Source of the DNA: an uncultured Erysipelotrichaceae bacterium
GTDB taxonomy: Bacteria; Bacillota_I; Bacilli_A; RF39; UBA660
Assembly: GCA_902776735.1 (NCBI GenBank)
Contig: CACYRE010000001.1
Span: 48,395 to 112,394, forward strand
Length of the DNA: 64,000 bases
Direction of reading: 5' to 3'
In this document: positions 7,199-43,804 of the stretch, piece by piece
Position numbering within the stretch: position 1 is the stretch's first letter
How the letters are laid out: every line of letters begins with the position of its first letter
The notes under the pieces: generated by a model
Seen by the model: only the letters and a program-made list of their open reading frames with translations
Databases searched by the model: none
Told to the model about the DNA's origin: nothing
Position numbers and translations under genes: made by a program

Positions 7199-7870
7199 TT
7201 AATATCTCCTATTTAAATCTAATATAAAGTTAAATACTCTAAGTTCTGTATTATATATTGGTGATTCCATAAAATTAAATAGAGCAGGCTTTATAGAATC
7301 ATATTTAACTTTCTTAAAATCTTCTATTAATTTCTTATACCATTTAGAAATATTATTGCTAGAAAGTACTACTCTATTTAAAAAAGTTAGTAAACTCATT
7401 TCTATATATTCAGCACCTACTTTATCCAGTAATTGTAAATAAGTTTTAGATATAGTAACTGTATCAGTATTAAAACTTCTAAGAAATTCTAAGAAAGCTC
7501 CAGTATTATCATATTCTTTCATTTGCCATTTACCAGTAATCCACATATATTCTATTTGGTCTCTAAAAGTAAAATCGTCTAAATCTTGATAAAATTCTAA
7601 TAAGTATTTAGGAACTTTTCTTTTCCACTTAGAAAATACTATGTCTAATAAAGTTAATCTATCTGTTAAATCTATTTCACCTGCTGCAGATACTGATATA
7701 TAATTCACTCCTAAATTCTTAATTTTATTTAAATATTTAGTTTCACCAGTCCATATAATATTTCTATCTGATAATAATATAGGTTTATCTAAAACTATAT
7801 AATCTGGATATAAGAATTGTAATAAACCTATATCATCTATTTTTACACTATGATTTATAATACTAATCAT
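7199..7870 (-). CDS. hypothetical protein
   Basis: ORF tightly packed (3-nt gap to downstream gene). Confidence 0.5.
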   Translation of the reverse strand: MISIINHSVKIDDIGLLQFLYPDYIVLDKPILLSDRNIIWTGETKYLNKIKNLGVNYISVSAAGEIDLTDRLTLLDIVFSKWKRKVPKYLLEFYQDLDDFTFRDQIEYMWITGKWQMKEYDNTGAFLEFLRSFNTDTVTISKTYLQLLDKVGAEYIEMSLLTFLNRVVLSSNNISKWYKKLIEDFKKVKYDSIKPALFNFMESPIYNTELRVFNFILDLNRRY

Positions 7871-42069: not shown

Positions 42070-42456
42070 CTAATATAATTTATCAAAATAAATTAGTCTA
42101 TGGTCATTTAACTTATATTTTAGTTTATATTTATTTAGTATTATTTTTAAGTCTGCTTTAAAAGCCCTATATTTAGCGTCTACATCTTTTTTAGTTAAAT
42201 GAACTATTTGTCCTTCAATACAAAGATTATTATTTTCTAATACACCAACCTGTTTAATTGGAAAATCTAATTTATTAAAATATTCCTGCATTTCTGTGCA
42301 CATAGGTTCAGTTAAATCATCTTCAGTAATTCCTTCTAATTCTAAAATAAAGTCTACTCCTCTTCTACTCATATAAATCTCCTTTCTATAAAATAAATAA
42401 GCTGGATAAACATTATCACAATAATATCTATCCAGCTGAAAAAAGGGTATCCCCAA
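42070..42456 (-). CDS. hypothetical protein
   Basis: ORF; first gene after the non-coding island. Confidence 0.4.
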   Translation of the reverse strand: MGIPFFQLDRYYCDNVYPAYLFYRKEIYMSRRGVDFILELEGITEDDLTEPMCTEMQEYFNKLDFPIKQVGVLENNNLCIEGQIVHLTKKDVDAKYRAFKADLKIILNKYKLKYKLNDHRLIYFDKLY

Positions 42457-42457
42457 T

Positions 42458-42476
42458 GTCTAGAGTATATCTAGAC
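42458..42476 (-). terminator. palindromic hairpin GTCTAGAGTATATCTAGAC then GGGGATACCC + T7 on minus strand
   Basis: Separates non-coding/tRNA island from gene 42070..42456. Confidence 0.5.
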
Positions 42477-42910
42477 TGATAAGGTTTATTTATTATCCTT
42501 ATCTGCAATACAAATTAATTAGAACTGTTTAAAGTCTATAGAAATAGTAAAATCTTAATATTACAAGATGATACTAAAACAGAAAAATTTGTTATAAATA
42601 CAAAGAAAAACTTATCTGATTTAAGACTAACATTATCAACAGATATTTATCTAAAATTTGTATCACGTTACTAGTTATGAATTTCTAGTAACCACTCCAT
42701 GGACTACTTTCCAAGGACGAACCAATATGGTCTCATTTTCATAGAGAATGACTCTATGCTGGGTATTCATTGTGAGAGGTTATATCTATTTTTGTCGAAT
42801 AGAGAAAATAATGAACTTCATTACCTCAACCCAAATGATTTACACAATATCTTCATATATTATTATATGCTGTTAGATAGTTAAATTAAAAATAAATTTT
42901 AGAAAATAGG

Positions 42911-42944
42911 ATAAAAAGTTGCGAGGTATATCCTATTTTCTATT
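42911..42944 (-). terminator. hairpin AAAATAGGATA-N13-TATCCTATTTT immediately 3' of the tRNA-like gene
   Basis: 11-bp stem followed by T-rich tract on minus strand. Confidence 0.5.
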
Positions 42945-42947
42945 AAT

Positions 42948-43027
42948 TGGAGAAGGTAGGATTCGAACCTATAATATTTAAATGACTTATACAAATCATT
43001 ATTCTCTACCAATTGAGATACTTCTCC
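42948..43027 (-). tRNA. tRNA-like gene with canonical acceptor/D/T arms but non-canonical anticodon arm (isotype unassigned)
   Basis: Minus-strand RNA GGAGAAG-TA-TCTC-AATTGGTA-GAGA-A-[TAATGATTTGTATAAGTCATTTAAATATTA]-TAGG-TTCGAAT-CCTA-CCTTCTCC-A: 7-bp acceptor, D-arm, GGTTCGAATCC T-arm; no 5-bp/7-nt anticodon arm can be drawn (best: 7-bp stem AATGATT/AGTCATT with 6-nt loop, or 6 bp with 8-nt loop). No encoded CCA. Confidence 0.55.
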
Positions 43028-43377
43028 ATAAATTTGGTGAGAGGTTCTAGTTTACGTCCAAATTTATAAGGTAATCAACCTCTTTCAGAGTATAAATACT
43101 CCCTCTCTATTAAATGACGTACATTGCACTATACAATAATATAAATCTATTAGGTTATTATATAATATGATGAGTATTATTTTTAATTAACATCATTATA
43201 TTATTAATACAGCTACTGTAACTCTATAATGTAGACCTCTTCATTCTACACCGTCGCTTTACACTATATAAAGCTAAATACCTATAGGCGTCTATTATTT
43301 CAAATAGACATCCACATCTATCATTGTAGATGTTTCAAGTATCATAAAATGTAATCCTCTGGACGATTACTTTTCCA

Positions 43378-43424
43378 GGTACAGTACAGGAGTCGAACCT
43401 GTCTTCACTCTACCCGAGCTGTAC
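43378..43424 (-). ncRNA. tRNA-like minihelix (acceptor-like 6-bp stem + T-arm ACAGG-TTCGACT-CCTGT; no D or anticodon arm)
   Basis: Minus strand GTACAGCTCGGGTAGAGTGAAGACAGGTTCGACTCCTGTACTGTAC-C immediately downstream of CDS 43430..43804. Confidence 0.4.
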
Positions 43425-43429
43425 ATATA

Positions 43430-43804
43430 TTATAATGCTTGTTCTTTCTTCTTTTTCTCATAATATTTTTTCATTGCTATTGCATGTCTTCTTTTTACAT
43501 CAGGATTATTTCCATTTTTTGCATACCATTCTCTATTTAATTCTTTATATCTTTCTTTATTTTTTAAATAATACTCTTTACGTCTTAATCTAGCTGCTTC
43601 TTGTTTTTCTTCTTCTGTCTCATACTTAGGTTCTATAGGATGTGGTTTATAAACATTATAATGTCTTTCACTAAAGTAATGTTTACGTTTCATTTTATTT
43701 TTTACATAATAAACTCTACTATAACAAGACCTAGAACAACAATTAACTCCTTTATACTGATAAATCTTTCCATCAAATTCTTTTTCACAGCATTCACAAA
43801 TCAT
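43430..43804 (-). CDS. small Cys-rich zinc-finger protein with basic C-terminus
   Basis: CECCEK...CCSRSC motifs. Confidence 0.45.
   Translation of the reverse strand: MICECCEKEFDGKIYQYKGVNCCSRSCYSRVYYVKNKMKRKHYFSERHYNVYKPHPIEPKYETEEEKQEAARLRRKEYYLKNKERYKELNREWYAKNGNNPDVKRRHAIAMKKYYEKKKKEQAL

Follow-up and report, generated by a model that had tools for sequence, protein, structure and literature searches.

This work concerns a gene-free island in a 64-kb stretch of DNA, here called the window. The island had been placed at 42457..43430, and indeed there is no minus-strand open reading frame (ORF) of 40 amino acids or more in 42457..43429. The gene-free stretch probably starts at 42376, because the ribosome-binding site (RBS, AGGAG) and ATG of the downstream gene, which encodes 100 amino acids, are at 42370..42383. 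We propose that the minus strand of the island carries several clustered RNA genes, in two modules that differ in evolutionary age. Module B (42390..42880) holds a conserved structured RNA that would act as a switch in the leader of the downstream operon. Module A (42900..43429) holds a tRNA-like gene and a tRNA-like minihelix, whose roles would need only the acceptor/T-arm half of a tRNA. For this explanation as a whole, switch leader and top-half role together, we estimate a probability of about 0.5. The original prediction overlooked both the unequal age of the modules and the large conserved RNA, with its terminator, in the 3′ half. All features of the island described below are on the minus strand.

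The window (W) was compared with 84 loci retrieved from relatives, which carry L-numbers. In the close relatives L001 and L078-80 the flanking genes are approximately 96-98% identical to those of the window. A sensitive blastn search of the island against the relatives shows that conservation is piecewise. L007 has only the segment 42661..42782 in common with the island, while L006 has only the minihelix with its adjoining hairpin, and the T-arm region of the tRNA. In L081 the upstream gene is 81% identical to that of the window and is followed directly by the 3′ half of the island, with minihelix and tRNA absent. Thus L081 and L007 have the conserved RNA and no module A, and L006 has a diverged module A cassette and no conserved RNA. 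Because of this distribution, module A is taken to be a lineage-specific accessory insert and module B to be older.

Within the closest group (W, L001 and L078-80) there are 14 substituted positions in the 1046-nt island. The annotated helices make up 30% of the island and contain none of the 14 (binomial P=0.007). This is more than expected by chance, and points to selection on the structure.

At least 12 lineages have module B, always at the same position. The relatives have a gene-free gap of 170-620 nt at the equivalent place, 4-6 kb upstream of DnaB. Reading of these gaps identified a shared motif, GAGUU-nnGGU-AGCAAA-G..., and the pairings were derived by comparison. The core motif is present in W, L001, L078-81, L007, L002, L003-5, L008, L011, L021, L064, L068 and L076. 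Short forms, which consist essentially of the core and the terminator, occur in L008 and L071-75. In an nhmmer search with the core, each locus gave a single copy, with no extra one in the window or the other loci.

The conserved core is 92 nt long (42740..42832) and, on the basis of covariation in 10 lineages, contains two crossing helices and a loop-loop contact. Helix P1 is GAGU/ACUC in general, GGGU/ACCC in W and UUAAGU/ACUUAA in L072. P2 (GUUCAUU/AAUGAAU in W) has 6-9 bp and an invariant closing G.U pair, differs in every lineage, and encloses an insert of 20-169 nt. Helix Pa (GAGGU/ACCUC in W) is formed by nnGGU, just 5′ of AGCAAA, with ACCnn at the 3′ end of the P2 insert. It therefore crosses P2, to give an H-type pseudoknot. 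P3 (CAUAGAG-UCAUU-CUCUAUG in W) has 7 bp and a 5-nt loop. The contact between L1 and the P3 loop is AGC:GCU; in the W lineage it is AAU:AUU, and there AAUGA and UCAUU are fully complementary.

Over the five core helices in ten lineages, 96.3% of cells are paired, compared to 31-44% in slid controls, and 17 of the 27 pairs have changes on both sides. Double-change cells number 69, compared to 23 ± 4 in shuffles. It must be said against our interpretation that MAFFT, run automatically, aligned the whole RNA poorly, so that the alignment used here consists of equal-length segments trimmed manually to fit the proposed helices, and that such trimming biases the pairing percentages upward. Despite this, distinct compensated stems are still numerous. 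RNAalifold, run on untrimmed sequences, independently recovers P3, P4 and P6.

The lengths of the P2 inserts are not multiples of three, so module B is not coding. The G.U pairs, including the invariant pair closing P2, and the strand-specific U tracts indicate that the RNA is made from the minus strand. Searches with Rfam 15 gave no family for module B at E≤10 in the window island. In the relatives there was none at E≤1 (three loci) or at the gathering score (eight more). The models for ROOL (RF03087) and GOLLD (RF01998) have no match at E≤10 here and, in 13 loci of relatives, none that reaches the gathering score; the T-box model (RF00230) has none at E≤10 here or at E≤1 in the relatives. 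Module B belongs to none of the 4227 Rfam families. We are confident that it represents an ancient, syntenic and unclassified family of structured RNA carried by gut or rumen phages of approximately 120-130 kb.

The same features bear on the suggestion that the island could be a replication origin or some other element acting at the level of DNA, with its hairpins formed in DNA. This would suit the length of the gene-free stretch, its many inverted repeats and the replication genes in its neighbourhood. However, the cumulative GC skew is monotonic with no inflection, iterons and tandem arrays are absent, and the stretch is not AT-enriched (26.5% GC, compared to about 25% for the window). RNA is indicated by the G.U pairs and by U tracts specific to one strand, and what the covariation preserves is pairing rather than sequence. 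The suggestion of an origin has thus hardly any credibility left.

Downstream of the core is a series of hairpins identified by comparison: P4 (42720..42732), P5 (42696..42717), which has a conserved U.U mismatch, and P6 (42667..42692), with the conserved loop AAAUUCAUAAC. P6 has the sequence GTTACTAG-N10-CTAGTAAC. It pairs completely in 9 sequences, 5 of its 7 pairs are compensated, and the consensus of its loop is RAAUnCAUAAC. The original prediction listed three small perfect hairpins, at 42667..42692, 43290..43309 and 43315..43332, as signs of further structured RNAs. All three exist, and the first, being P6, is part of the conserved RNA. A variable insert of 138 nt (42521..42658) is seen inside the RNA from alignments A1 and A7; it occurs in W and L078-80 and not in L001. 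Beyond it the sequence predicts the hairpins P7 (42478..42503), whose loop AUAAUAAAUAAA resembles that of P6, and P8 (42458..42476). P7 is present in several lineages with the loop AUAAUnCAUAAA, on stems that, as read by eye, differ and still pair in W, L007, L021, L003 and L068. The number of hairpins in module B is variable, and two of them display the loop motif AAUnCAUAA. Pairing of the P6 or P7 loop with the anticodon loop of the tRNA-like gene was considered and dropped, since AUAC is present in the L001 loop and is AUUC in W.

The RNA finishes in a predicted intrinsic terminator (42390..42437), with a 17-bp stem of -21 kcal/mol and a U tract, which ends 6 nt before the RBS. It is the only terminator-like site found in the region. 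In 11 of the 11 lineages checked, a stable hairpin (-11 to -27 kcal/mol) with a U tract precedes the RBS by a few bases. As in attenuators, a conserved domain lies upstream of an ORF, with a terminator between the domain and the RBS.

On the 5′ side of the core is the P0 5′ strand CUAUCUAACAGC (42869..42880). Its sequence complements the terminator 5′ strand, which makes it a candidate antiterminator strand. RNAduplex analysis of this flank against the terminator 5′ strand gave p≤0.06 relative to shuffles in 9 of 10 sequences. P0 changes together with the terminator across lineages, with lineage-specific matching in L072, L076, L007, L011, L003 and L008. In L072 the P0 strand AACTATCTACTT equals the terminator 3′ strand at 12 of 12 positions. 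The P0/terminator pairs are ACTACTATAA/TTATAAGTAGT in L076, CTATCTAGC/GCTAGATAG in L007 and ATCTATCCT/AGGATAGAT in L011, and covariation is seen in L072, L076 and L007.

Because the terminator 5′ strand can pair instead with P0, we infer, tentatively, that module B is a terminator/antiterminator leader switch; three strands competing for one partner are the signature of such a device. In this mechanism the folded core would bring the two P0 strands together, and RNA polymerase would read through into the downstream operon, which leads to the replication genes DHH, DnaB and PolA. Otherwise transcription would terminate, releasing an RNA of approximately 170-500 nt.

Several observations count against a switch. 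P0 is weak in some lineages (p=0.21 in L064), L081 has no recognisable P0 5′ strand, and in L021 the best RNAduplex pairing uses a 5′ segment different from the proposed P0. A TATAAT box is conserved between the P0 5′ strand and P1 in W, L007, L002, L064 and L081. Because it is 3′ of P0, transcripts initiated locally would lack P0 and should terminate. Finally, the first downstream gene varies, being a small protein with two transmembrane segments in many lineages and a soluble protein of 100 amino acids in W, so that it provides no clue to an effector.

Some of these observations are what would be expected of a serious rival: that module B is a free-standing noncoding RNA, acting in trans or self-assembling as a smaller analogue of ROOL and GOLLD, with the terminator merely its 3′ end. 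The downstream gene is not conserved, and the TATAAT box just upstream of P1 suggests a promoter of its own in several lineages. Two of the hairpin loops repeat one motif, as expected for binding to a protein or for contacts in an oligomer. The general setting also fits, namely a phage-borne RNA of 170-500 nt with multiple pseudoknots, beside tRNA-like genes and apparently from the ruminant gut; ROOL and GOLLD are RNAs of phages or prophages, often near tRNA islands and sometimes with tRNAs in a linker (PMC5737381, PMC12286853). However, neither the ROOL nor the GOLLD model detects module B, the terminator is always placed directly on the next RBS, and a third strand that is complementary to the terminator 5′ strand and covaries with it is hard to explain except by a switch. 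A free-standing RNA is, on this balance, rather unlikely, and the leader switch is retained as the reading of module B.

A more far-reaching version of the switch is that module B forms a new class of phage riboregulator, sensing an effector and gating the step from early genes to the replication module across the phage family. This is speculative and we consider it unlikely as it stands. If it were so, the effector might be a tRNA or a tRNA-like RNA, given the top-half mimics next to it. With a similarly low probability, the tRNA-like gene with its 8-nt loop and the minihelix would then share a circuit of regulation or processing and would not be translation factors.

Some observations were made on the genes that follow the RNA. 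In L003, L068, L008, L011, L021 and L072 the first gene encodes 110-150 amino acids with two hydrophobic segments and an acidic tail, and the soluble 100-residue protein of the window lineage is unrelated to these. This intergenic site is an insertion hotspot. In L071 (2960-4524) an IscB-type gene (RRXRR and HNH, 413 amino acids), together with approximately 320 nt of upstream non-coding sequence, has inserted precisely into the interval from the terminator of the conserved RNA to the RBS downstream. Approximately 3 kb upstream in the same locus is a TnpB-type gene (OrfB_IS605, cut by the start of the locus) with a RAGATH-18 RNA. In L008 (6240-6400) the same hotspot contains three tandem units of approximately 55-65 nt (TTTTATATGTATATAAAATAACATAGTAATAAAAC...), upstream of the short conserved RNA. 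In L076 (290-410) a long closed hairpin-like element (CTTGAGT...ACTCAAG, with a GC-rich interior) precedes the conserved RNA; it has no Rfam match at the gathering score.

The most prominent element of module A is the tRNA-like gene at 42948..43027, which does not encode CCA. ARAGORN finds it as the single tRNA in 64 kb (42947..43028, 'tRNA-?(Tyr|Ile)(gtat)'), with an 8-nt loop, ttgtataa, and Rfam RF00005 matches at 42948..43027 with 44.7 bits, compared to a gathering score of 29. The minimum free energy (MFE) fold is a cloverleaf of -19.9 kcal/mol (z=-2.7). The acceptor stem GGAGAAG/CUUCUCC is paired at all 7 positions, and U8 and A73 are present. The D arm, UCUC-AAUUGGUA-GAGA, has a complete 4-bp stem and G18G19. 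In the T arm, AUAGG-UUCGAAU-CCUAC, the loop fits the consensus TTCRANY, and the stem contains one mismatch, A49.C65. The original prediction of perfect acceptor, D and T arms is therefore right for the first two and slightly overstated for the third.

The lower half of the molecule is non-canonical, as had been proposed; ARAGORN, the Rfam alignment and direct reading all agree on this. There are 29 nt between the D and T arms, compared to the usual 21-22. The pairs from A28-U47 through U33.G42 (with U34-A41 optional) give only loops of even size (6, 8 or 10 nt). The arm therefore has either 5-6 bp with an 8-nt loop or 7 bp with a 6-nt loop. A normal 7-nt loop, which would have contradicted the earlier claim, is not possible in any register, and one obtained by a register shift or a bulge is ruled out because the available pairs do not permit it. 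The 8-nt loop UUGUAUAA (42987..42994) offers three anticodon readings: UAU (Ile, followed by A37 and A38), GUA (Tyr) and a four-base GUAU. The variable region has 8-9 unpaired nt, which corresponds neither to class I (4-5 nt) nor to class II (a stem-loop of at least 13 nt). Thus the score and the acceptor, D and T arms are those of a canonical RF00005 tRNA, and the anticodon arm (5 bp, 7-nt loop, U33, purine 37) and the variable region are not. An archaeal-type intron was also considered and dropped, because the surplus amounts to only about 5 nt and the signals of the host (RBS, intrinsic terminators, SH3/amidase lysins) are of bacterial type.

The tRNA-like sequence is identical in five independent assemblies from different samples (W, L001, L078, L079 and L080), and hence is not a sequencing error. 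In L006 a tRNA-like copy is present at the same position in the cassette (7416-7560). Its variable/T-arm segment is homologous, and its acceptor stem (ATAGACA/UGUCUAU) has a completely different sequence and yet pairs throughout. Its D loop lacks GG, its bottom half is approximately 85 nt, and an anticodon arm is not recognisable. A blastn search of the 80-nt tRNA against phages gave only weak matches to the T arm and acceptor, of which the match to an Aeromonas phage tRNA-Tyr covers GGAG... and the T arm only; a match to IAS virus is antisense and was discarded as meaningless. ARAGORN finds no tmRNA.

The second tRNA-like element is the minihelix (43378..43424), a 47-nt element that has no anticodon arm and begins 5 nt beyond the stop of the gene upstream. 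It was described as an acceptor-like stem plus a T arm, and this is what is found: a 6-bp acceptor-like stem GUACAG/CUGUAC, a short D-like segment with GGUAGA, and the T arm ACAGG-UUCGACU-CCUGU. The acceptor pairing is ambiguous, as GUAC is a palindrome and the MFE structure prefers another register. A homologue is present in L006 (7338-7383). Between the two, the T stem changes from ACAGG/CCUGU to GUAGG/CCUAC, which is two compensatory pairs, and the 3-bp D-like stem changes from CUC/GAG to UAU/AUA.

Both tRNA-like elements keep the acceptor/T-arm half, which is also the only half kept in the diverged L006. For this reason we infer that their roles need only this top half, which would be recognised by RNase P, RNase Z, CCA enzyme or an elbow-binding factor. 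The elements could serve as processing or stabilising punctuation of transcripts from the island, or as decoys. Conservation of the top half would fit recognition by processing enzymes better than decoding. Three points weigh on the other side. The tRNA-like gene shows no sequence variation, so that comparison provides no test of the anticodon arm. The homology of the L006 copy consists of a 27-nt match (E=0.03, in a small database) and its position. In addition, the flanks of the loop are canonical (UU...AA) and AUA and UAU are heavily used, so that ordinary decoding is conceivable.

Such decoding is the close second to a top-half role. The gene would be a working elongator tRNA that reads triplets in spite of its 8-nt loop, either AUA through UAU (Ile) or UAU/UAC through GUA (Tyr). 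It could supply codons that are very frequent in the phage, or replace a host tRNA cut by an anticodon nuclease, to which the altered loop and stem might confer resistance. The upper half of the cloverleaf is canonical. Counted from the 3′ side, the loop reads U34-A35-U36-A37-A38, as in tRNA-Ile(UAU). Moreover A73 and U12-A23 fit the identity elements for Ile in bacteria. Counted from the 5′ side, it reads UU-GUA (Tyr), and the acceptor GGAG.../...CUCCA resembles tRNA-Tyr of phages and Firmicutes. AUA and UAU rank with the most frequent codons (51 and 50 per 1000, respectively), so that a tRNA reading them would be useful. Against this, UAU is preceded by G and not U, GUA is followed by U and not a purine, and bacterial TyrRS expects a long variable arm. 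There are three joint departures (the 8-nt loop, a stem of up to 6-7 bp with 3 nt at the position-26 junction, and the 8-9-nt variable region), which would alter the distance from elbow to anticodon. The gene is also confined to one shallow lineage, and no anticodon arm is recognisable in L006. Precedents exist in yeast mitochondrial tRNAThr1, which has a natural 8-nt loop and is able to read triplets (PMC3113583), and in phage tRNAs that rescue infection from tRNA-cleaving defences (PMC11555353, PMC11464382). Taken together, we find triplet decoding possible and somewhat doubtful.

The 8-nt loop also invites the proposal, made in the original prediction, of the architecture of a frameshift suppressor; here the anticodon GUAU would read the quadruplet AUAC with a natural +1 shift. 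The loop is indeed enlarged by one nucleotide, its layout UU-GUAU-AA is symmetric, and ARAGORN reports a four-base anticodon. Expanded-loop tRNAs such as SufB2 cause +1 shifts (PMC7803779), and frameshifting occurs in the family, where relatives use a conserved +1 site in DnaB. However, no gene that requires the reading of AUAC is found: at none of 387 coding-strand ATAC sites in the visible 64 kb does the 0 frame close while the +1 frame stays open. ORFs of at least 100 amino acids contain 61 in-frame AUA-C sites, only slightly below expectation (7.0%, compared to 8.8% expected), which efficient quadruplet reading would corrupt. The family +1 site is CCN-CGG-A, which is unrelated to AUAC and is absent from the window phage, whose DnaB is intact. 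Furthermore, the molecule is not a canonical tRNA with one inserted base, since stem length and variable region deviate too. A frameshift suppressor is on these grounds very improbable.

The DnaB site is worth describing in its own right. In relatives DnaB is split into two overlapping ORFs (L007 10001-10050; L016 at ~3012; L071-L075 at ~7982), at a Pro codon followed by CGG, which is extremely rare (0.1 per 1000 codons). If CCN is read, the next C skipped and GGA read thereafter, this restores ...GGLQP-GAxTTILGF..., which is uninterrupted in the window DnaB. The site is kept across lineages that are 66-82% identical, and looks like programmed +1 frameshifting at a hungry codon. Recoding of a stop codon by a suppressor tRNA was also considered and dropped, because the ORFs are intact under table 11. 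TGA is nearly absent as a stop, ending 1 of the 67 ORFs of at least 100 amino acids (TAA 46, TAG 20); long conserved genes of the window contain no in-frame TGA, and table 11 still fits.

It could also be argued that tRNA-like gene and minihelix are functionless remnants in decay, from a pseudo-tRNA or an attP-like tRNA fragment. Their distribution is limited to a shallow lineage, the lower half departs from the canonical form, the T stem includes an A.C mismatch, and the site is a hotspot for other mobile DNA (IscB in L071, tandem repeats in L008). However, every stem and every tertiary-contact base of the top half is intact, there is no integrase nearby, and none of the 14 substitutions is in a helix. 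In addition, the stem changes between the W and L006 types are compensatory in the T arm of the minihelix and in the acceptor stem. We regard decay as improbable, and retain a role for the top half as the favoured reading of module A.

Module A contains further candidate elements. Directly 3′ of the minihelix is PK1 (43351..43378), a hairpin GUAAUC-N8-GAUUAC that could form an H-type pseudoknot (CUGG...CCAG). All 28 nt are identical in W, L001, L078-80 and the L006 copy, which is otherwise 84% identical; the pseudoknot itself is proposed from the sequence and not from covariation. The two small perfect hairpins CAUCUA-N6-UAGAUG and GUCUAU-N8-AUAGAC (43290..43332) occur only in close relatives, with no substitutions in their stems. 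Upstream of the tRNA there are two weak matches to sigma-70-like promoters (43157..43222), GTTACA-16-TATAAT and TTAAAA-18-TATAAT; the number of such matches is no greater than in shuffles, the scan being uninformative at 25% GC.

Abutting the 5′ end of the tRNA is PK2 (43030..43083), a candidate H-type pseudoknot read from the nucleotide sequence alone, in which AGAGGU/ACCUCU crosses AAAUUUGG/CCAAAUUU (inverted repeat I9, direct repeat D2). A direct repeat matching at 12 of 13 nt, UAKAACCUCUCAC, links PK2 (43037..43049) to the Pa-3′/L3 part of the core (42772..42784). The tRNA may have been captured inside a partial duplicate of the conserved RNA. On its 3′ side is a 13-bp hairpin (42900..42942, inverted repeat I3) with the loop UAUACCUCGCAACUUUU; it lacks a proper U tract and was not called as a terminator. 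In L007 (3595-3635) the same loop, UAUACCUCGCAA, is found on a different and still complementary stem, just before the terminator.

The window has approximately 25% GC, with all genes on the minus strand. Their products include PolA, a DnaB-type helicase, an SNF2 helicase, a ligase and lysins, from which we conclude that it is a piece of a large phage genome, of which the 64 kb represent only about half. No close cultured phage was found (tblastn identity <32%), and a blastn search of the island against 50,697 phage records gave no matches. More than 150 DnaB relatives are present on metagenomic contigs of 100-133 kb, in a database of 5.8 billion proteins, and several of these derive from ruminant gut data sets. 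Searches of IMG/VR with a flanking protein, the polymerase, the anticodon arm and the PK1 sequence gave no matches. The pattern GGAGTTNNGGTAGCAAAG gave 16 matches in IMG/VR, which are 14 chance matches in coding sequence (GroEL-like GVTVAK) and two true members. In pattern searches of genome contigs, the top half of the tRNA had no match, and the leader core had one, a chance match in coding sequence of a Clostridia metagenome-assembled genome from sheep colon; these searches found neither a host ancestor of the tRNA nor a prophage copy.

It had been noted that the island is the only substantial gene-free stretch in 64 kb. This is nearly right; a second ORF-free stretch exists at 33193..33655. 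It is homologous to a GIY-YIG/SegE-like homing-endonuclease gene of L004 and L006 and has in-frame stops, and is thus a decayed homing endonuclease and not an RNA gene. Other mobile elements are found in the family: group I introns (Rfam, 92-95 bits) split PolA in two relatives, and another has an intein with LAGLIDADG in PolA (L003 15272-15508; L008 16847-17070; L071 9711-12764). The window PolA is uninterrupted.

The tRNA-like gene is a clean natural example, in five assemblies, of a tRNA-shaped phage RNA with an enlarged anticodon loop. It bears on the drift of tRNA architecture under selection for the top half, on tRNA mimicry by phages and on the evasion of defences. The conserved RNA has comparative support equal to that of many accepted Rfam families while matching none of them, and it occupies a fixed regulatory position in a large family of uncultured phages. 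Should it prove to be a switch, it would represent an RNA fold not seen before, perhaps with an effector that is likewise new. Should it be free-standing, it would join the few large phage RNAs beside tRNA islands whose function is unknown.

Among known systems, the suppressors SufB2, SufA6 and sufD and the yeast mitochondrial tRNAThr1 likewise have an 8-nt anticodon loop on an otherwise tRNA-shaped molecule. These are canonical tRNAs with one inserted base, whereas the present gene also deviates in stem length, at the position-26 junction and in the variable region. Unlike for the +1 suppressors, there is no quadruplet-dependent gene in the 64 kb, and the identity is ambiguous between Tyr and Ile. 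The T5 tRNA-Tyr active against Retron-Eco7 and the T5 tRNA-Lys active against PARIS are also phage tRNAs with a changed anticodon region, which here is a loop containing GUA and UAU. The T5 tRNAs have fully canonical 7-nt loops with point changes, unlike the window tRNA. The tRNA-like gene is a variant phage tRNA or a tRNA mimic, which departs from canonical tRNAs in two defining features.

The minihelix can be compared with the tRNA-like domain of tmRNA, YrlA Y RNA, mascRNA and the 3′ tRNA-like structures of plant viruses, which also lack an anticodon arm (it has an acceptor, a T arm and a D-like segment with GG). Its position 5 nt after a stop codon, with a pseudoknot-capable hairpin following, resembles that of a tRNA-like structure in a 3′ untranslated region. 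Unlike tmRNA and Y RNA, it has no tmRNA ORF, no pseudoknot ring (by ARAGORN) and no Ro-binding stem, and its length is only 47 nt. Apart from a 7.6-bit match of the tmRNA model, from the T arm only, it has no match in Rfam.

Transcriptional riboswitches, attenuators and the leaders of the T-box type have, as module B does, a structured 5′ domain and a terminator abutting the RBS; the mutually exclusive pairing of the terminator 5′ strand that they use has its candidate counterpart here in P0. Unlike riboswitches and T-boxes, module B matches no known aptamer or T-box model and its first regulated gene is not conserved. Its candidate antiterminator strand is at the extreme 5′ end, 170-480 nt away, which also differs from riboswitches and attenuators. 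With ROOL and GOLLD it shares a phage context beside tRNA genes, multiple pseudoknots and an occurrence in ruminant gut metagenomes. It is smaller (170-500 nt) and is tied to a terminator and an RBS, and it is built of serial hairpins behind a compact pseudoknotted core, whereas ROOL and GOLLD are built of multistem junctions.

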